A stretch of 63,599 nucleotides of DNA, the filler included. It is 7 parts of 7 records of this genome, joined end to end, with 100 filler letters (N's around TTAATTAATTAA, not from the genome) between each part and the next. Parts side by side here need not be neighbours in the genome. Positions count along the whole stretch, not along the records: positions 21,418 to 31,161 come from SRR31147125_30141; 6 more parts are not named here. One strand, 5' to 3'. The notes under the pieces were generated by a model. It had not been told where the DNA came from, ran no database searches, and worked only from the letters and a program-made list of their open reading frames with translations. The position numbers and the translations under genes were made by a program. Below are positions 13,073-55,224 of the stretch, in pieces; the first letter of the stretch is position 1, and every line of letters begins with the position of its first letter.

Positions 13073-13172
13073 NNNNNNNNNNNNNNNNNNNNNNNNNNNN
13101 NNNNNNNNNNNNNNNNTTAATTAATTAANNNNNNNNNNNNNNNNNNNNNNNNNNNNNNNNNNNNNNNNNNNN
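13073..13172. other. artificial contig linker
   Basis: N44-TTAATTAATTAA-N44 (stops in all six frames). Composition and gene content change abruptly across it. Confidence 0.98.
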
Positions 13173-21317: not shown

Positions 21318-21417
21318 NNNNNNNNNNNNNNNNNNNNNNNNNNNNNNNNNNNNNNNNNNNNTTAATTAATTAANNNNNNNNNNNNNNNNNNNNNNNNNNN
21401 NNNNNNNNNNNNNNNNN
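21318..21417. other. artificial contig linker
   Basis: N44-TTAATTAATTAA-N44. Confidence 0.98.
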
Positions 21418-21562
21418 AAAAAAAGGAACCGGCATCTGCATTGGCAAGTCGTCTGGTCTCATACAAAATGGTATCTAACAAAGAGTCAATATCTTTGATA
21501 TGATTCAAATCATCATTGATGCGCAGCAATTCATGCAATTTATTGTCCGTACCAATCTTCAT
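21418..21562 (-). CDS. 5' fragment of a GAF-domain signalling protein (often GAF-HD-GYP)
   Basis: DIDSLLDTILYETRRLANADAGS is a typical GAF N-terminus. Truncated by the gap. Confidence 0.6.
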
Positions 21563-21690
21563 CGGCGCCCCCTTTCATATATGACTCATCATTCCTGATT
21601 TTTCCGAGACACAATTATTATTGTATGCTAATTAATCCAGAAAAGGGAATAAATCAACCTTTACCTCCATGAAAGGACCTGTAGAACCGC

Positions 21691-22653
21691 ATGAGTGATA
21701 TTGCCGGACGATCGTTTAGCTTCAATTGGTTTACCTCCCCGGTGGTGGGAACCGAGCCTGGTAACAATGAATCTCAAAATCAGATACGATGGGGAGAAAT
21801 GCCCGCCTCTACCCGACAAAGCCGGATTAAAGGCATTGTTCTTCTTCTCAATGGACGAACGGAATTCATGGAAAAATATCTCATCCCGTCCCGTCGGTTG
21901 GCAAAGATGGGGTATCATGTATTCAGTATGGATTGGCGGGGACAGGGAGGGTCGTTAAGAGAGCTTCCCAATCGCCACAAAGGGTATGTGAGAGATTTTG
22001 ACCATTATGTTCAGGATCTCGATACCTTTTTTTACCGGTTCGTTGCTCCCCGAAATCTTCCCGTCACCATCATGGCCCACTCCATGGGAGGTCATATTGT
22101 ACTCAGATATCTGATGGGCAAAGCAACCGAAGATGCCATTCCCCCCGCCATAAATAAAGCGCTGTTACTCTCTCCCATGCTCGATATCCGGACATCCCCG
22201 TTCCCCAAGCCGTTGGCCCTTTTTTTATCTGATATGGCCGTCCGTTTCGGCATGGAAAAATCATATGCCTTGGGAAGCCCCGGGGATTATTCCCCCAATA
22301 GGGTTCGATTTGAAAACAACCCGTTGACCCATGATCGAGACCGTTTTTTTATCGAGCATGGGGCAATCGAAAAAAATTCCCATCTTGCCCTGGGAGGGGT
22401 CACCTGGGGATGGCTGAAACAGGCGTTTGATTCCATTGAAATGATTCAATGTAAAAAACGACTTGCCGAAATTCCCACGCCGATCCTCATCGCCAGTGCA
22501 GCCGAAGATAAAGTCGTCTGTAATCGTGCCCATCAAAATGCGGCAAAGCATCTTCCCAATGGCACCCTGATTACAATTCCCGGAGCACTTCATGAGATCG
22601 TTTTTGAAACAGAAGCTATCAGCGAGCAACTTTGGCGGCAGCTGCCGATATGA
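21691..22653 (+). CDS. alpha/beta hydrolase, lysophospholipase L2 (PldB)-like
   Basis: GRTEFMEKY, DWRGQGGS, AHSMGG nucleophile elbow, EDKVV and ALHEI. Confidence 0.88.
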   Translation: MSDIAGRSFSFNWFTSPVVGTEPGNNESQNQIRWGEMPASTRQSRIKGIVLLLNGRTEFMEKYLIPSRRLAKMGYHVFSMDWRGQGGSLRELPNRHKGYVRDFDHYVQDLDTFFYRFVAPRNLPVTIMAHSMGGHIVLRYLMGKATEDAIPPAINKALLLSPMLDIRTSPFPKPLALFLSDMAVRFGMEKSYALGSPGDYSPNRVRFENNPLTHDRDRFFIEHGAIEKNSHLALGGVTWGWLKQAFDSIEMIQCKKRLAEIPTPILIASAAEDKVVCNRAHQNAAKHLPNGTLITIPGALHEIVFETEAISEQLWRQLPI

Positions 22654-22688
22654 TTCATCATTAAAGTGATGGGGATCGAAGCGATTCA

Positions 22689-23599
22689 TTATGGTTTTGT
22701 CAGAAAGGCATGACTTTCAAGATTGAAGAGAATATCGTTTTCCCAGTAGGCTTGCTCCAGCTTTTTCTGGTGATCGATCAAGGCGTCCCCCTCTTTTCCG
22801 CCAATGCGTGGACAAGATAGTTAATCAGACAGGAAAGGGTCGTCGGGCTCCCGAGGAAGGGGATGCTGGTCATGGGGGCGATCAAATGGTGATCACTGAA
22901 CTGAATCAGAGGGCAGGCATCACTGTCCGTCAAAAGAATCAATGTGATCCCCTGTCGTCTGATAAATTTTCCGATCCGGATCAATTCATTGGGATACCGG
23001 GACATCCCCACAATGACCACCACCGATTCCGCAGGAGCGATGGCAAGAAAATCGATGGCGGTTCGATCGGACCCTTTGAGAGTGGTGATGTTTTGCCTAA
23101 CCTTGGTCATGGCCCACCCCATGTAGTAGGCCGGTGCATAGGAAAGCCGTGAGCCGATGACGAACAGATGCGCTGCGGCATCCATCAGATCAATAATCTT
23201 TTCCGCATCGGCGCTGGCCACATTGCCGGCCAGCAGTTTTAGATTCTCGATCTCTTTTAGAATGACCCGGTTCAGTTTTCCGTTTTGATGCTCAATGTCA
23301 TCGGTGGATATTCGACTCCGCTCCATTAAGGTCAACCCCGTGTCAATATGATCCCTGAGGCGCCGGATAAAAACGGCATAACTGTCATATCCCAATTGCC
23401 TGACGAAACGCACCACGGTGGCTTCACTGACACCCACCGCCGCCGCCAGTTCTCTTGTGGTCATAAACACGGCATTTTGAGGGGCTTTCATGACGTAGTC
23501 GGCGATTTTTTTACTTTTCGGGGTCAACTCATCGGATGTGGCATCAATCACTTTTTCCAGAGTCGCTCTCTCACTGTTCATTTTTAATTCCTTACCCAT
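22689..23599 (-). CDS. MurR/RpiR family transcriptional regulator (HTH + SIS), frameshift at C-run 22787-22791
   Basis: RELAAAVGVSEATVVRF..LGYDSY HTH and an SIS domain. One extra G extends the C-terminus to ...DHQKKLEQAYWENDILFNLESHAFLTKP*. Confidence 0.9.
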
Positions 23600-23850
23600 T
23601 TACACATATATTCATTACCCATTTTCGGTTTTCATGAATGACACGCCATGTGTGTCATAACAAGCGCTCACTGAAACAAATTCAGTTTTTTTACAACAGA
23701 TGATTGTTTTTTGCAATACACGATATCATAAATATAAAAACATTTTTATGTGTAAAAAAATTAGTGATTTCAATATGATCTTTAAGGTAAGCATTTGAAA
23801 GACCATATTTTTTCAAATTTTTTGTTTCTATTTTCTACTATTCCGATTTA

Positions 23851-23932
23851 TTGACAGTTTAGATTTGTAAGCATATATTTCATTATGAAATATAAATGTT
23901 CATAATTGACAAAAATCAGTTCTTTCTATAAT
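23851..23932 (+). promoter_or_regulatory. sigma70-type promoter(s) with overlapping palindromic operator upstream of the GlmS-like gene
   Basis: TTGACA(23851)-N17-TATATT(23874) and a second TTGACA(23906)-N15-TATAAT(23927). Palindromes TATATTTCAT-T-ATGAAATATA (23874-23894) and ATTATGAA-N9-TTCATAAT (23882-23906). GGAGG RBS at 23986. Confidence 0.65.
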
Positions 23933-23999
23933 AGATCTCCAATTGACCCGGTGAAGACTCAAAAGAGTAATGTGAATATATTTTTGGAGGACATTTGTC

Positions 24000-26900
24000 A
24001 TGTGCGGTGTTGTATCCTATTTTGGAAGTGATCCCGATGTCATCTCACGTATCATTACAGGGATGTCTGCCATCATCTACCGTGCACCCGACAGTACGGG
24101 CATTGGTACGTTCGGCAATCTCTCCGAACCCATCGTCATGAAAAAATGTTTGGGATCGGTTTCCAATCTGATCCCGGTTTTGCTGGAACATCCCTGCTAC
24201 GGCCATACCGCACCGCTGATCAAAACCCTGTGGAAAGATTTCGGAGAGATGACATCGGGTGAAATGCAAAAAAGATTGATAACGTTCGAGCATCTTTCAA
24301 CCGCTTCCTACGACGCCGTTTCCAACGAGGAATTATGCTATCTTACCCATTTTGATCTGATGACCCGGGACTATGAAGGCAATGCAAATCAAAATTTCAG
24401 CTCGCTGTTACCACTCATTCCCGGCACCCCGGGACGCCCCACGCCCCTTGTGCCGTTTCAAATTCGCTCGAGAAACGATTTTAGAAAGATGATAGCGACT
24501 CTGACCACCACATATAATTGTTCCGCCGTAGCAATTAAATCTCTCTTGCGGGAAGAGTTAAACAAAAGGTATCGGATTCGACTCTCCGATCCTGATCAAC
24601 AATCAACACAGCAGAACGACTTCAACGGTGTCACCCAGGCCGATATCTTCAATGCATTTGACTATCTTTTTCTCAAGACCGTTGAAGAGTTAAGGCCTGT
24701 CGTCAATAAAGAGAGAGATAACTTCAAGCGATTTTACATCAATCCCCATGCAAAAAAAGCGTTGTGGAAGTTGATCTCATCCATGAGAATTCAAGTTCCA
24801 AACGATTTTGATACCGACGGAATCCGCTATGTGTTCAGAGTCATCGATGCCGCTTTACTCACGGGAATCTCATTTCAACCGGGTCTATTGGAGAACATTC
24901 AATGGGCATTTGAGAAGAGCATTCGTCATCATTATGATCATGGTCATGTCAATGCGCATGGGAGTGGGAATGTGCCGTCGGCATCAAATTCGAAAACGTC
25001 CGGACAAAATAATTCCGATGACCAAAGCGGCGTTAAAGTCGATTGGCTGACACTCTATGCGGTAGAGCGGGCACTCAATGTGTTTGGTGTGGCTGCGGCA
25101 TGTGCGCTGGATTGGTGTATTACCCATCGTCTCTTTTCCGAATCCGTCAACAGCAAAAAAGAGATTGTCAATCATCCGGATTTGCCCCATGCATTGACGG
25201 ATCCCATTCGTCTTGAATCTATTGAATCGGAGTCGATAACGGCCCACGCAGACCGGATGAATACCCGTAAAGGCATCAGCAACAATGCTCATTCAATCGC
25301 CTCAACATCCCTTCCTCTATCTACTGTCCTGAGCTACTTGAATCCCCCCATGATCGCCCACGGCAGATGGGCCTTGCAATCTTCCGTCACTGTCGACAAT
25401 GCCCATCCTTTTGTCGATCAAGCCGGTCAGCGGAGCATTGCTCTAAACGGTCAGTTTTCTCTGGATGTCGAGGAAGAGATGAAAACCTTTTTGGTGAATG
25501 TGGCAAACATCCCTCTGAAAACCGATAATTCCGGAGAGTACATGGCACTTTTTTGGGGCTACTACTATGAAACCATGATCCGGGAAAAGCAGCAATACCA
25601 GGAAATCAGAAGTCAGGTTGATCTGGATCTGGACAGCTACGGCATCGGAAGCAATACCGTCAATTTTCAGATCCTCAATCTTTTGAAAGACAAAAGTGCA
25701 GCTGATATCGATGCCTTGGCATTTATCCGTGCAGCAGAACTTTTTACACGTAAAGGGGGACAAATTGCAGTTGTCGGCATCAGCATGATCTCTCCGGGGA
25801 CGATTTTCGCAGCTGCCAGTAACCGCCCACTCTTTATTGTGAAACGGGCCGATAAAGATTCATTCATGGTTGTATCGGATATCAATGCGGCATTGGGTCT
25901 CTTTTCTCAGGAAGAAATTCTTCAGATCACCCAGGAGTATGATGCCCTCGTGACAGAGCGGGACAAACAACTTCAAGAATCCGATCCAACAAAAAACTGG
26001 GAAGCGGAGTGGGAGGTATTGAATGCGAAGTTTAACGAAGATGCGGATAAAATTCTGTCTCAATTCAAAGTGCTGATGTACACCTTGGAAGGAAAGGATC
26101 TTTTTGCAAAAATCGACACAAGACTTGAAAAGGGGAGGGAGGAAGTTACAGGCAATGTCGAAAGGCGTGTGACCATCACCGATTTTGAGGGCAATGAGGT
26201 GCATGATATTATTCCGGAATACTTGAACCTTACCCCGCCCCATGTCCATAAGGATCTGGAGCTGTCCTTTTTCGAATCCCACATGCAACAGATTCCCGAA
26301 CTGCTTGAAACCATGTGTGACACTGTTCTCGATACGGAAAACGCCATTCAGCCCATTCAGGTGAACAAAAAAATCTTGCTGAGAAGATTCGGCAGCCAAA
26401 TGAGTGGACTCAAACGCATCTTTCTCATTGGAATGGGCAGCTCCCACCATACCGCCATTAATGCCGCCCCGTTGATTCGAAGCCTCATGCCGGGGATTCA
26501 GATCATCTGCACCCGGCCTGTGGATCTACCCTATATTGCCCGCAGGATCTCTTCCGATCAGGATCTGGTGCTGATGCTGAGCTGGAGCGCCACCACCGCC
26601 GATATGGTGGATTGCGCAAAAAAACTTCGTCAGATGGGAACGATCACCATCGGTATCACGGAGAAAACCGTTGGCGACCTTGCGCTGATTACTCGAAAGA
26701 GCGGAGGAACGGTTCAAGCCATGAGCGGCGAAGAGGTGACGGTGCCTGCGGTGAAAAGCCCCTTTTGCATGATGATGGCCACTCAGCTTTTTGCCCTCTG
26801 GTTCAAACAGCATCTTCTTCTGGAAGAACCGGATCAGACCATTTACGCACAAATGAGACAGATTCCCATTGAAATTGATTCTTTAATGTCCAACCGGACA

Positions 26901-28901
26901 TTCATGAACGATATCCACTCCCTTGCCTTTGACATCGCAGCAAAGGAGAGTGTACTGATTGTAGACAATCTGAATGAATCCGCAGTGGCCCGGGACGCAG
27001 CACTGAAAATCGAAGAGATGAGCTGGACCTTTAAAGGCAGATGCGTAGATTACTCCGAGCTTCCTTTGGCGTTGATTCGGGGAAATAGAGAAAAGATGTT
27101 CATCATCGTCAATGCCACCAGCGAGGAGAGGCGGTTCGATGCCATCGGTGCCATGATGCACCTTCACCGGGAAGGGGCTGATTTCATTACTCTGACATGG
27201 GAGATGCGGGAATCGGATCAAATTGAAAAAATGAGCCGTCAGGTCATTCGCATCCCAAGACTTCCGGATCACATGCAACCGTATGCGGATCTCATCTTTT
27301 ACTACCAGTTCGCCTTCTACTCGGGTCGGGCCCGGGGCCGGATCGATGACGACTATCCGAGAAACAGAGCCAAGTCCGTCACCACATCCCGCTCAGCGCC
27401 GGTGTTTGAATTTGCTCCCCAAACCGAGCTGTTCAATATTCGACATCGAGAAGCGCTCTTCGATGAAACGCGCTTCCGTCATGGCCGGTCATCCGAATCC
27501 GAGAATTTTGACACATCAGAAATTGATGAAAACAACAAAATTAGTCAATCCGCTCTTCATTTTGGAACTAGGTTCGCTTGGGAGCGCCATACCCATCTGT
27601 TTCACCATCAAACCCTATCGACATTTGACCATTTCAAACGCATCGGCCAGGCCATTCTATCGGAAAATCCCCTGGATGCTTTGATGGGGCACTTCCCGTC
27701 ATCCCAAATGGATGAGCTGGCAGCGCACCTGTTCGACGGTGACGGCGATGGAGAGATCTGCTTTTACCCTCTGGATTCCATATCAAAGGGAGCGGTCGAA
27801 CAGACGATCATGGCATCTGCCCGATATTTCCCGATAATGATGCGATGTGCCCATCCGGGCGAATCTTCCGACGGTTTGCCGGCTGAAACCGTGATTGTGT
27901 TTGTTTCAGCCACCGAATATAACAATCCCCCGGATTCTTGGTGCCATGCCGATGTCACCCAAAAAATATGGCTTACGCCCAATGCCGCCGACCGCAATAG
28001 AAACAGCGTACCCTTTTCCATTGTCATGGTTCATTTTGCGGAATCCTTCGAAAAGGTGGATCATTGTCTCATATACACTGCCTTGATGCAGCTTTTGTTG
28101 ACCGTATGGTCCCAAAGTAATCGTGAAGACGGCTCTTTGCTGCTCAATCATTTCAAGCATGGCGCAGATGTCATTTCCACGATATTGAACAACGAATCAC
28201 TCTTTGATGAAATCAAGGAAGTGGCAAGAAGAAATCAGACGTATCACTCCCTTCTCTATCTCTCTCCACCGGATGGGAGCGGGTATGGGTTCACCTCCCA
28301 TTTTGACGAAAGCGGAAGCTGTTTTGCCCAATGGGAATCTTTTGGAAGCAGCGCCCATGGAGCACTGGTCACCGTGGACAGCGATGTGGCCACGAAATAT
28401 ACTCTGCTGGAATCAAAGGGGAAAATGATCGAAAAATACGGCAAAGAGCAAATCCAAATCTGGGAGAAGAAATATCTTCAGGGAAAAGATGTGGATACCT
28501 TTCTTGACACCGTACCGACCACTTCGGGTCATCTGGTCAACTCTCCGTTTTTCAGTGAAGGGGCATGGTACCTGCCGCTTCTTCGACCGGAATATGACGT
28601 GTCTCAAGACAACCTGATCATTCTGAACGCCTCAAATGAGTTCTTTTTCAATCATGCCATTGATGATTTAACGGTATTTGGTTGCCGTCATGCCCGGATG
28701 GTGGTGATCAGTCAGGAATATTTCATCAACAAACCGGAAAAAAAAGCACTGGAGTTGTTTCCATTTTCCGGAATGCTCTTCATCCCATCGTTGAAGGGGG
28801 ATGATCGTCCGGTGCCGCTTTCCGATTGCCACCTCCCATTTGCAGAGGGACTCATTGCCGCAGCATTGTCGGATCTGCTGTCTGATCGACACAATACCTG
28901 A
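24000..28901 (+). CDS. giant (1633 aa) GlmS-like class II glutamine amidotransferase / multi-SIS-domain protein
   Basis: N-terminal MCG, YRAPDSTG, AHGRWA, NAHP and LNG glutaminase motifs. SIS motifs GMGSSHH, SWSATTAD, EEVTVPAVKS, ALKIEEMS and PRNRAKSVT, followed by about 500 extra residues. Confidence 0.85.
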   Translation: MCGVVSYFGSDPDVISRIITGMSAIIYRAPDSTGIGTFGNLSEPIVMKKCLGSVSNLIPVLLEHPCYGHTAPLIKTLWKDFGEMTSGEMQKRLITFEHLSTASYDAVSNEELCYLTHFDLMTRDYEGNANQNFSSLLPLIPGTPGRPTPLVPFQIRSRNDFRKMIATLTTTYNCSAVAIKSLLREELNKRYRIRLSDPDQQSTQQNDFNGVTQADIFNAFDYLFLKTVEELRPVVNKERDNFKRFYINPHAKKALWKLISSMRIQVPNDFDTDGIRYVFRVIDAALLTGISFQPGLLENIQWAFEKSIRHHYDHGHVNAHGSGNVPSASNSKTSGQNNSDDQSGVKVDWLTLYAVERALNVFGVAAACALDWCITHRLFSESVNSKKEIVNHPDLPHALTDPIRLESIESESITAHADRMNTRKGISNNAHSIASTSLPLSTVLSYLNPPMIAHGRWALQSSVTVDNAHPFVDQAGQRSIALNGQFSLDVEEEMKTFLVNVANIPLKTDNSGEYMALFWGYYYETMIREKQQYQEIRSQVDLDLDSYGIGSNTVNFQILNLLKDKSAADIDALAFIRAAELFTRKGGQIAVVGISMISPGTIFAAASNRPLFIVKRADKDSFMVVSDINAALGLFSQEEILQITQEYDALVTERDKQLQESDPTKNWEAEWEVLNAKFNEDADKILSQFKVLMYTLEGKDLFAKIDTRLEKGREEVTGNVERRVTITDFEGNEVHDIIPEYLNLTPPHVHKDLELSFFESHMQQIPELLETMCDTVLDTENAIQPIQVNKKILLRRFGSQMSGLKRIFLIGMGSSHHTAINAAPLIRSLMPGIQIICTRPVDLPYIARRISSDQDLVLMLSWSATTADMVDCAKKLRQMGTITIGITEKTVGDLALITRKSGGTVQAMSGEEVTVPAVKSPFCMMMATQLFALWFKQHLLLEEPDQTIYAQMRQIPIEIDSLMSNRTFMNDIHSLAFDIAAKESVLIVDNLNESAVARDAALKIEEMSWTFKGRCVDYSELPLALIRGNREKMFIIVNATSEERRFDAIGAMMHLHREGADFITLTWEMRESDQIEKMSRQVIRIPRLPDHMQPYADLIFYYQFAFYSGRARGRIDDDYPRNRAKSVTTSRSAPVFEFAPQTELFNIRHREALFDETRFRHGRSSESENFDTSEIDENNKISQSALHFGTRFAWERHTHLFHHQTLSTFDHFKRIGQAILSENPLDALMGHFPSSQMDELAAHLFDGDGDGEICFYPLDSISKGAVEQTIMASARYFPIMMRCAHPGESSDGLPAETVIVFVSATEYNNPPDSWCHADVTQKIWLTPNAADRNRNSVPFSIVMVHFAESFEKVDHCLIYTALMQLLLTVWSQSNREDGSLLLNHFKHGADVISTILNNESLFDEIKEVARRNQTYHSLLYLSPPDGSGYGFTSHFDESGSCFAQWESFGSSAHGALVTVDSDVATKYTLLESKGKMIEKYGKEQIQIWEKKYLQGKDVDTFLDTVPTTSGHLVNSPFFSEGAWYLPLLRPEYDVSQDNLIILNASNEFFFNHAIDDLTVFGCRHARMVVISQEYFINKPEKKALELFPFSGMLFIPSLKGDDRPVPLSDCHLPFAEGLIAAALSDLLSDRHNT

Positions 28902-29101
28902 TGCATTCGATATTGTATCGATTTTTTGAGTGGTGCTTGGCTTTTTTTGAAACCGATTCGGTTTTAAAACTTTGCTGACATCAAGGCAAGGTGGCCGTTT
29001 GGGGCAGAACAGACCCAGTATCCCCTCTGCCTCCAGTATTTGCGTTAACAGCCTAAGGTTTTCCGGCAGGCGTATGGTCAACCACCAATACCTGGAACGA
29101 A

Positions 29102-31161
29102 TCAGGTTTCTTCCGGACATGATCTTTCATTTTTTTCACCTTTTGAATTTGAGTCAGGAATCTCCAGCAAGGCAATCAGGCTCTGGAAGTCGTACCTGTC
29201 GGCAAACGACGCCAGTGCTGCGCCAATAGAAGGATCCAGTTCCTTGATTTTTGCCACCACCTTTAGAACCATGGCCTGGTTCAGCCTGAGGACTGCCCGC
29301 TGTAACTGCTCCCGCAGTTCCTTGGGCAGGATGGCCGTTAGCTGTTCAGAAGTTATCTCCTTCTGCGGGGCCGGTGGTTCTTTGTCTTCCTCATACACAT
29401 AGCTTACACCAAGATGGTTTGCCATCACCTCGAAGATCTCGTGCTCACGGTACGGTTTGGACAAAAAATCATTACATCCCGCCGCCAGAATATCCTCTTG
29501 CTTATCGTCCAGGGCATGGGCGGTAAGTGCTGCAATGACGACCTCCTTCCCATTCTGCATGGCCCTGATCTGCCGGGTCGCTGCCAGCCCGTTCATCACC
29601 GGCATCCGAATATCCATCCAGATGAACCCGGGCTTCCAGTCTGAGAATGCTGCCACGGCTTCTCTGCCATCTTTGGCCCCCCGGACCTCGAACCCTGTTT
29701 CCGTGAGCAAGGTCATGAGGAGCGTACGGTTGTCGTCGTTGTCATCTGCAATCAATATCCTGGGAATCTTCTGTTTTGGTGCGAGGGCCACCACCCGGTG
29801 CTTGCGTTCACTTGTAGGAAGATCGGCAGATCGTGCTTCCCTGATGTTGATTTCCAAACGAAATGTACTGCCCTTACCGACCACGCTGTCAAAGGTGATG
29901 TCCCCTCCCATAAGACGGGCATATTCCCTGGAAATGGCCAATCCCAGCCCCATGGCTCATGTTAGCCAGAAAAGTGCTTTTAGCCAGGTTGGCTACCTCG
30001 GCTTTTTCTCTGGCGTTGTCTGCGGCCTCCTTTGCTTTGGCAAGTTCGGCCGTCCGGTGAACAACCCGCTGGTCCAGCTCTTTGTTAAGCTTGAAAAGTG
30101 CTTCTTCCGCCTGTTTACGCTCCGTGATATCCGAGAGGAAACCTTCCAGGTAGCTCAACCGGCCCCTGGCGTCCCTGGCCGCACGCACATTTAATGAAAC
30201 CCAAAGCGTACTTCCATTCTTTTTGTAAAATCTGGTTTCAAAATCCGAAACCGTATCACTGACATCGAACCTGCGGATCAACTCGTCCCGCTGAGCGGGG
30301 TCCACATACAAATCCCTGGCAAGATTGGAGACGCGTTTCATTAGATCGTCGGAGTCGATATGGCCCAGGATACTTGCCATGGAAGGGCTGGCGCTGATAA
30401 AGCGCCCCTCGAGTGTTGTCTGAAAGATCCCTTCAACAGCGTTTTCAAATATGCTGCGGTACTTTTCTTCCGCTGTTTTAAGTTCCTTCATTTGTGTCTT
30501 CAGCCTGCCGGTCATTTCATTGAAAGCCTTGGAAAGCTGTCCGATCTCATCACGGCTTTTGATATCAACGGTTTTATCCAGATCCCCCATCCTGATCTCG
30601 TTGGCCGTTTTTGTCAGGGTGTTGATCGGTTTAATCACCGAAAGCCAGATAATAGTAATTACGATCAATAGTAGCATAAGGCTTGCCCCTGTGGCGCCAC
30701 GAAGAAAATCCCGGCGGTATTGGGGAAGCATCTTTAGAATCTCCTCTTCAGGAAGGACGATTGCGAAGTACCAGTCAAGAAAATCCAGCTTATACGCAAA
30801 CAAGTACTGGGTTTTTCCTTCAGTAAGATAACGGTCATAGTTTAATCGGCGCTCCGGGGTGTTGAAATCGACAATTTTTGCAATAACCCGTGACAGTTCA
30901 GGGTCTCCCAGATCGGACGTACTCAGTAGGGTGCCCATCTCAGCGGATTTCAGCAGCCTATCCAGGTACTTGGGATGGACAACGATATTCTTCCCGTGGT
31001 CAAAGATGAATCCGTAACCGCTCTTAAAATACTTTTGATTTAAAATTTTAGCGTATACCTCATCCAAAACCACATCATGCCCCACAACACCCAAAAACCG
31101 GTTGTCGATGTAAATCGGCGCAATGATGCTTGTCATCCAATGTTTCCATATGGAATCATAA
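29102..31161 (-). pseudogene. hybrid sensor kinase (dCache-HAMP-PAS-HisKA-HATPase-REC) with internal deletion, 5'-truncated by contig end
   Basis: H-box FLANMSH runs directly, out of frame, into the G2 box GLGLAISREYARLMGG at about 29950. The rest of HisKA and the N/G1 boxes are absent. REC domain (ADD...MDIRMPVMNG...KP) is intact. Confidence 0.75.
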
Positions 31162-31261
31162 NNNNNNNNNNNNNNNNNNNNNNNNNNNNNNNNNNNNNNN
31201 NNNNNTTAATTAATTAANNNNNNNNNNNNNNNNNNNNNNNNNNNNNNNNNNNNNNNNNNNN
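31162..31261. other. artificial contig linker
   Basis: N44-TTAATTAATTAA-N44. Confidence 0.98.
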
Positions 31262-38263: not shown

Positions 38264-38363
38264 NNNNNNNNNNNNNNNNNNNNNNNNNNNNNNNNNNNNN
38301 NNNNNNNTTAATTAATTAANNNNNNNNNNNNNNNNNNNNNNNNNNNNNNNNNNNNNNNNNNNN
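38264..38363. other. artificial contig linker
   Basis: N44-TTAATTAATTAA-N44. Confidence 0.98.
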
Positions 38364-47539: not shown

Positions 47540-47639
47540 NNNNNNNNNNNNNNNNNNNNNNNNNNNNNNNNNNNNNNNNNNNNTTAATTAATTAANNNNN
47601 NNNNNNNNNNNNNNNNNNNNNNNNNNNNNNNNNNNNNNN
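47540..47639. other. artificial contig linker
   Basis: N44-TTAATTAATTAA-N44. Confidence 0.98.
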
Positions 47640-55124: not shown

Positions 55125-55224
55125 NNNNNNNNNNNNNNNNNNNNNNNNNNNNNNNNNNNNNNNNNNNNTTAATTAATTAANNNNNNNNNNNNNNNNNNNN
55201 NNNNNNNNNNNNNNNNNNNNNNNN
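55125..55224. other. artificial contig linker
   Basis: N44-TTAATTAATTAA-N44. Confidence 0.98.

Follow-up and report, generated by a model that had tools for sequence, protein, structure and literature searches.

A giant GlmS-derived protein family of sulfate-reducing bacteria, predicted to act as a single-chain pseudo-dimer with an altered donor site

Glutamine:fructose-6-phosphate amidotransferase (GlmS, or GFAT; EC 2.6.1.16) is a textbook enzyme whose ~600-residue design hardly varies. PMC9272926 gives catalytic roles for its Cys1, Glu488, His504 and Lys603. Here we analyse a 63,599-nucleotide stretch of DNA (the window) in which one open reading frame (ORF) encodes a 1633-residue relative of this enzyme. 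An earlier note on this DNA had described the product as a giant GlmS-like amidotransferase, and the unbroken ORF that it reported is indeed present. We predict that the protein is an accessory, active, single-chain pseudo-dimeric amidotransferase derived from GlmS, with a donor other than ordinary glutamine, a phosphorylated carbonyl compound as acceptor and a role tied to quaternary-amine metabolism, and we give this combined prediction an even chance of being right. The gene and its parts are as follows, with the basis of each assignment in brackets.

24000-28901, plus strand: giant GlmS-derived ORF of 1633 residues, stop codon included (ORF call, homologues)
24000-24161, plus strand: glutaminase (N-terminal nucleophile (Ntn), class II) piece 1, residues 1-54, with Cys2, R28 and D31 (1xff fold match)
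24162-25343, plus strand: helical insert, residues 55-448 (model of residues 1-760, conservation)
25344-26234, plus strand: glutaminase piece 2, residues 449-745, with R456, W457, N483-G484 and N510-S511 (fold match, residue counts)
25902-26072, plus strand: helical hairpin in piece 2, residues about 635-691, ~55 residues (model)
26241-27389, plus strand: SIS pair 1, residues 748-1130, catalytic isomerase-type module (Pfam SIS, PDB sequence match, fold match)
27390-28898, plus strand: linker and SIS pair 2, residues 1131-1633, degenerate copy (hhalign, model)

The giant GlmS-derived enzyme represents a conserved, unnamed and uncharacterised family. In a search of one genome per species, at least 151 loci encode a relative, of which 80 were kept; together with the window these make up the 81 loci discussed below, and residue counts refer to the 80 kept members and the window, less those with no residue at the position in question. 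Members range from 1,450 to 1,930 residues and fall to only 30-35% identity, with conservation that spans the whole protein length and lies far beyond chance. Nearly all of the 80 kept loci derive from metagenome-assembled genomes (MAGs) of Desulfobacterales/Desulfobacteraceae or Desulfohalobiaceae; the set includes two Spirochaetia MAGs and a single cultured strain, Desulfospira joergensenii DSM 10085; one MAG carries two giant loci (L066 and L068). A homologue search provided 35 homologues, the full-length ones being about 1,450-1,834 residues long, whose source names are only "SIS domain-containing", "hypothetical" or "GlmS-like amidotransferase/phosphosugar isomerase". A literature search found nothing on this protein.

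The N-terminal half was modelled as residues 1-760 (pLDDT 84, pTM 0.87), and the glutaminase domain of E. coli GlmS (1xff) could be aligned over its full length, 238/238 residues, to model residues 2-744 (Z 29.9, root-mean-square deviation 2.1). As modelled, this region is a complete GlmS-type Cys1 glutaminase fold, interrupted by the insert and the hairpin, and the 1xff alignment places the large insertion proposed in the earlier note at about residues 55-448. The glutaminase motifs listed there were likewise all recovered: a Met-Cys2 start, YRAPDSTG (27-34), HGRW (454-457), NAHP (467-470) and NG (483-484). The protein of the window and 80/80 members with an N-terminus begin with the pattern MCG(V/I)V, which includes the nucleophile C2. 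R28 is invariant, while R456, W457, N483 and G484 are each found in 81/81.

The family departs from GlmS where the amide donor is bound. A profile alignment to PDB chains showed that the S-E-T-D-T-E segment of human GFAT corresponds to S-E-N-S-x-E in the family, with N510 and S511 in 81/81. In class II amidotransferases, the Asp of this segment presumably binds the alpha-amino group of glutamine, so its replacement by Ser throughout the family suggests that the amide donor may be something other than ordinary L-glutamine. On this basis, candidate donors would include glutamine analogues of an N-methylated, betaine type as well as keto and acyl analogues. Three aromatic residues, F471, F486 and Y514, are conserved in the family beside the donor pocket and, as a conjecture, would fit a quaternary-ammonium cage there.

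In the C-terminal half, Pfam recognises a single SIS domain only (PF01380, residues 805-932, 31.4 bits against a gathering cut-off of 25), while isomerase sequences of GFAT and GlmS in the PDB match residues 748-1129 (E 6e-18). A model of residues 745-1633 (pLDDT 90, pTM 0.92) has 6r4e (Z 40.8) and 4amv (Z 39.6) as fold matches of its first module. This module contains the SIS motifs that had been noted previously, SWSATT (861-866), VPAVK (915-919) and PRNRAKSVT (1120-1128), and keeps S861, W862, S863, T865, T866, E911, E912, K919 and S920, with K1003 also present in the window. The Schiff-base Lys, K1125, is found in 80/80 members, and the catalytic Glu, E1006, in most. Because the Ser/Thr residues of the SWS.TT loop (S861, S863, T865 and T866), which we take to bind phosphate as in GlmS, are retained together with the Schiff-base Lys and, mostly, the catalytic Glu, the acceptor is probably still a phosphorylated carbonyl compound.

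The protein continues for 503 residues (1131-1633) beyond the Lys loop, in agreement with the ~500 residues estimated from the sequence, and the model shows two further alpha/beta subdomains here. A profile-profile alignment of this tail with SIS pair 1 (hhalign, probability 79%, E 1.5e-5) is collinear over 301 columns, which argues that the tail is a diverged duplicate of the isomerase module; structure searches with the two-module model are filled by module 1, so the homology of module 2 rests on hhalign. This second, degenerate SIS pair was absent from the earlier note, as were the contig chain and the link to betaine and quaternary-amine clusters described below. The two modules have lost different residues. 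The position of module 1 that aligns with His504 is Glu1020 in the window and Asp or Glu in 76/81, while module 2 has lost the SWS.TT and Lys loops and keeps an A-H-G-P motif directly after the matching strand, whose His (H1453) is conserved in 67/78 members with a residue there. In the GlmS dimer, His504 comes from the neighbouring subunit, and these complementary losses, with module 1 lacking the His and module 2 lacking all but the His, are what would be expected of a fused pseudo-dimer with one live site. SIS pair 2 would thus act as the "other subunit" and lend H1453 to the site of SIS pair 1, so that each chain would possess a single glutaminase site and a single sugar site. Nitrogen freed at Cys1 from a donor other than L-glutamine would then travel through the conserved Trp gate and reach a phosphorylated keto compound bound to K1125. 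The tighter version of this scheme, in which a dead isomerase module gives its His to a live one and the donor is specifically an amide without a free alpha-amine, is in our estimate rather improbable.

A subgroup of about 1,750-1,930 residues has an extra C-terminal tail of 225-324 residues. This tail gave no PDB sequence match and no match to neighbour proteins; its language-model features (Atlas) point to GAF domains with a score of 0.95, which is a lead only.

L017:7375-8325, and the same region in L023, L025, L029, L031, L032, L035, L050 and L067: extra-tail subgroup

Such a degenerate SIS pair and GAF-like tail could be taken to indicate a pseudo-enzyme, acting without catalysis as a sensor or scaffold: it would bind some metabolite and regulate the adjacent methyltransferase system described below. 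In addition, the catalytic Glu is not universal (66/81). We regard this as highly improbable, as sequences only 30-35% identical show little or no variation in the nucleophile Cys, the Asn-Gly oxyanion hole, the Arg, the Trp and the Schiff-base Lys, and Pfam and NCBIfam searches of the giant protein revealed neither a DNA-binding nor a signalling output domain.

The retained active-site residues are also compatible with a true glutamine:fructose-6-phosphate amidotransferase, in other words a second, conditional glucosamine-6-phosphate (GlcN-6-P) synthase whose inserts and extra module serve regulation or assembly. All core positions of such an enzyme are present (Cys2, N483-G484, R456, W457, E1006, K1125 and S861/S863/T865/T866) and the top fold matches are GlmS and GFAT. 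The donor-site Ser in 81/81 and the alteration of the residues matching GlmS S401 and T402 are both difficult to reconcile with this function, which on balance we consider unlikely. Further evidence on this point comes from larger relatives that were identified through the insert.

The ~394-residue insert is mostly helical, with two disordered loops, and has conserved positions of its own (D273, F279, W349, E356, N360 and G363). A search of its profile against 1.84 billion representatives identified 65 proteins, all belonging either to the giant family or to a set of even larger "mega" relatives. Atlas scores for the fold of the insert were all 0.85 or less, and in a structure search with the whole model, the rows below the Ntn relatives either matched the 635-691 hairpin in a generic helical way (Z about 6) or extended over the entire model.

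The mega-relatives are 14 distinct, unnamed metagenome proteins of 2,241-4,868 residues (P0072-P0092) that reproduce the complete giant architecture without rearrangement: glutaminase piece, insert, glutaminase piece, SIS pair and degenerate SIS pair with a conserved His-Gly-Pro. About 340 extra residues, including an invariant Cys and His, precede their nucleophile Cys, which is therefore internal, so processing would be needed. In P0072 the chain runs on into a GlmM-like mutase (TIGR01455, E 4e-60, below cut-off; PGM_PMM I-III) and a brief GlmU-like segment, an architecture that would place the whole hexosamine pathway in one chain, and weak hexapeptide repeats are found in P0079 and P0081. 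A contig scan for mega-family loci with the pattern RNLAKSV found ordinary GlmS genes only and no mega locus. Since the mega-relatives are fused to GlmM- and GlmU-like parts, the ancestral architecture probably serves hexosamine synthesis, which favours a GlcN-6-P synthase. These proteins, however, keep the donor-site T-D-T as well as an RNLAKSVTV loop, which suggests that the change from Asp to Ser is special to the betaine-linked giant family.

The earlier note had also argued that the protein is not the housekeeping GlmS, and several lines of evidence agree. Curated GlmS models match residues 720-1128 with scores far below their cut-offs (TIGR01135, 139.2 bits versus 418; NF001484, 153.3 versus 381), which likewise speaks against a second GlcN-6-P synthase. 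The donor-site Ser in 81/81 members also sets it apart from the housekeeping enzyme. In a sample of 151 genomes of the order, apparently Desulfobacterales, the giant family is present in 19, and a different GlmS-like protein of ~1,280 residues is present in 143, including all 19 that carry the giant, which is thus never the sole GlmS-like protein. Canonical GlmS (~610 residues) occurs in just three genomes, all of them among the eight without the long form, so that the two are mutually exclusive in the sample. Five giant-bearing genomes examined whole have no GlmS match over the cut-off, while 14/14 control genomes have one; the best GlmS match in each of the five is a different ORF, with an open frame of 1,252-1,357 residues, that has SQSGTT and VASTK. 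The long form is extended at the N-terminus and, by ~250 residues, at the C-terminus, and has an insert ahead of its RGRDSAG motif.

L081:424-4275, minus strand, with L082-L085: examples of the long GlmS-like form, about 1,250-1,290 residues in genomes G002-G155

As this long form is nearly universal and is lacking in the very genomes that have canonical GlmS, it is likely to be the housekeeping enzyme of the order, which appears to have replaced canonical GlmS with it. On these sequence comparisons, the giant protein is not the housekeeping GlmS of the cell, and the fact that every genome bearing it already has a ~1,280-residue form with SQSGTT and VASTK is a further argument against its being a GlcN-6-P synthase. 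The suggestion in the earlier note that it acts on another sugar phosphate or an amino-sugar conjugate is plausible.

A possible role emerged from the neighbouring genes. ORFs were called in the 80 loci and the window, five neighbours per side were clustered, and cluster representatives were named by Pfam, NCBIfam and PDB searches. The most frequent neighbours were as follows.

34/81 loci: MttB-superfamily methyltransferase
19/81 loci: OpuAC
16/81 loci: ProV-like ATPase, in a cluster that includes a generic ABC ATPase from another window contig
14/81 loci: permease
14/81 loci: MmgE/PrpD
9/81 loci: corrinoid protein
9/81 loci: pterin methyltransferase

Sarcosine-oxidase-like subunits, RACo and RamA-like activators, iron-dependent alcohol dehydrogenase (Fe-ADH) and aldehyde:ferredoxin oxidoreductase also recur. 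An MttB, corrinoid, pterin methyltransferase or OpuAC gene lies within five genes of the giant gene at 52/81 loci, and at 32 of the 40 loci with at least eight neighbours. The giant gene is typically the last of its operon, with median upstream gaps of 28 bp behind MmgE/PrpD (10 loci) and 12 bp behind Fe-ADH (4 loci). The one MttB neighbour searched against the PDB, that of L007, is closest to glycine betaine methyltransferase (2qne/9yce, E 1e-79). The five whole genomes contain 38, 17, 1, 32 and 8 MttB copies, respectively, and each of the five has an MttB gene no more than about 10 kb from the giant gene; in G003 this is the only MttB-like gene. Across the order sample, MttB is present in 18/19 giant-bearing genomes versus 57/132 others (Fisher p 1.2e-5). 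Because the gene of these relatives is typically last in operons for MttB-corrinoid methyltransferases or betaine uptake, a role in quaternary-amine use can be proposed, in which the enzyme would serve the breakdown or use of betaine- or choline-type compounds. A GlcN-6-P synthase would leave this betaine context unexplained.

Many of the MttB genes feature a single in-frame TAG, the pattern to be expected of trimethylamine methyltransferases of the pyrrolysine type, and many do not (G001, G002, G004 and others). At three loci (L001:15186-16772, L018 and L028), the giant gene adjoins an asparagine-synthase-like gene, which encodes another class II amidotransferase, and these loci also contain DAO, a metallo-beta-lactamase-fold gene and a CN-hydrolase gene.

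The catabolic operon context, with its uptake genes, is also compatible with a breakdown enzyme, whose SIS module would be a deaminase or deglycase of an amino-sugar phosphate or Amadori-type conjugate, as in GlmD, NagB-II and FrlB, and whose Cys1 domain would split the same compound, once imported, at an amide or gamma-glutamyl-type bond. Among the close fold relatives of module 1 are SIS-only deaminases and deglycases (2cb0, Z 31.0; 1j5x, Z 30.4; FrlB 8glr, Z 26.7; FraB 9otj, Z 25.7), there is a weak NCBIfam match to NagB-II (E 6e-9), and the N-terminal domain resembles in fold EgtC (Z 21.2), an Ntn hydrolase with a betaine-bearing gamma-glutamyl substrate. This protein nonetheless keeps the Trp gate and C-terminal Lys loop typical of an ammonia-channelling synthase, and no recurring sugar kinase or sugar transporter was found among five genes per side at the 81 loci, so we judge breakdown to be an improbable function.

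Several observations weigh against an altered-donor pseudo-dimer tied to quaternary amines. In 14/81 members L, I, V or D stands in place of E1006, and in 12 Asn stands in place of K1003. The AHG stretch was left unaligned by hhalign, and the proposed contact of H1453 with module 1 derives from the residue pattern. The GlmM- and GlmU-like fusions of the mega-relatives point to plain hexosamine synthesis for the architecture. There is no MttB, OpuAC or corrinoid gene on the 9.7-kb contig that carries the gene in the window, and 29/81 loci, many on short contigs, have no MttB, corrinoid, pterin methyltransferase or OpuAC gene within five genes. MttB genes are also numerous, at 1 to 38 per genome, so some adjacency is to be expected by chance, estimated at about 4-6% per locus.

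The window itself is a chain of seven contigs, split by six artificial spacers that each consist of 44 N, TTAATTAATTAA and a further 44 N. The earlier note's description of the gene as standing alone is not confirmed: its contig is only 9.7 kb in a chain of joined contigs, so isolation cannot be judged. The spacers and the features of this contig are listed below.

13073-13172, 21318-21417, 31162-31261, 38264-38363, 47540-47639 and 55125-55224: artificial spacers
21418-31161: contig carrying the giant gene, 9,744 bases, GC about 48%, with artificial spacers at both ends
21691-22653, plus strand: alpha/beta-hydrolase gene, Hydrolase_4 (Pfam, E 2.9e-41)
22778-23599, minus strand: RpiR/MurR-type regulator, HTH_6 and SIS, divergent from the giant gene (Pfam)
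23600-23999: 400-bp divergent intergenic region with presumed promoters and operator (position only)
29102-31136, minus strand: hybrid sensor kinase/response regulator that runs off the contig end (Pfam)

An independent contig (10,542 bases) of X1, the only public run containing this DNA, with no RNA data set listed for the stretch, spans 21418-31161 in one piece, and the single difference over this piece is one extra C in X1 behind 22786. This lies near the 3' end of the RpiR gene, so the C-terminus of the regulator may be misread in the window. The divergent RpiR-type gene was correctly identified in the earlier note; such a neighbour occurs at 6/81 loci and was the sole basis for calling the enzyme inducible. 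The sensor kinase region, for which no letter differences from X1 were listed, consists of two overlapping frames (29889-31136 and 29102-29953) with dCache/HAMP/PAS domains followed by a partial HATPase_c and a receiver; HisKA was not recognised by Pfam.

The contig of the giant gene matches a Desulfamplus MAG (L001) in its GC content (48%), in its best homologue (63-64% identity) and in its RpiR protein, which is 75% identical to the one in the same divergent position at that locus, where MttB or OpuA genes come further along. PfkB, 6PGD and the other genes to the left of 21318 lie on other contigs. The window steps between about 29% and 50% GC, and this unequal content indicates that the pieces may not all derive from one organism; one low-GC piece contains a DUF4270 gene, and a transketolase query made to trace the host of the low-GC pieces gave no match above 50% identity. 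A horizontal-transfer island, with 48% GC within about 30%, was ruled out, as the GC steps fall exactly at the artificial spacers, and a pseudogene-rich reduced genome was ruled out because several of the cut genes (6PGD, solute-binding-protein fragments and sensor kinases) abut contig ends.

If our preferred reading is correct, GlmS has been rebuilt into a single-chain pseudo-dimer of 1,500-1,900 residues with an altered donor site. The tighter and rather improbable version of it would link the anaerobic breakdown of quaternary amines by MttB and corrinoid proteins directly to the synthesis, or the dismantling, of an amino-sugar phosphate. Members are common among sulfate reducers of marine and hypersaline settings, and the family appears tied to the turnover of betaine-type osmolytes, which is a large flux of carbon and nitrogen in sediments. 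Given that its members carry generic names only and that nothing was found on them in the literature, the reaction of the giant enzyme may be a missing step of anaerobic quaternary-amine metabolism. The apparent replacement of canonical GlmS in the order also bears on annotation and on reasoning about GlmS as an antibiotic target.

In comparison with known systems, the giant protein resembles GlmS/GFAT (TIGR01135) in joining a Cys1 class II glutaminase at the N-terminus (Z 29.9) to a subsequent SIS pair (Z about 40), and in conserving the Arg, the Trp gate, the Asn-Gly oxyanion hole, the Ser/Thr residues of SWS.TT, the catalytic Glu and the Lys of the C-terminal loop. It is, however, about 2.7 times longer, its glutaminase domain contains a ~394-residue insert and a hairpin, and its Lys loop is followed by a second, degenerate SIS pair; it differs as well in the change of the donor-site Asp to Ser in all members and in the loss of the His504 position in module 1. 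It is also patchy and accessory (19/151 genomes) and is found in betaine and quaternary-amine clusters instead of with glmU. The ~1,280-residue form is likewise an enlarged GlmS relative with a glutaminase insert and a C-terminal extension, and occurs in the same genomes, but it shares only 24% identity over the SIS part, keeps SQSGTT and VASTK, and scores 216-235 bits on the GlmS model. The mega-relatives share the giant architecture and differ by their N-terminal extension, T-D-T, RNLAKSVTV loop and further domains. SIS-only deaminases and deglycases (GlmD, NagB-II, FrlB, FraB and AgaS) have the SIS-pair fold of module 1 (Z 25.7-33.9) without the glutaminase domain, the insert or the second module, and the giant protein scores 35.6 bits on the NagB-II model versus 430; these enzymes show that the C-N bonds of sugar phosphates can be broken as well as made by a SIS module.

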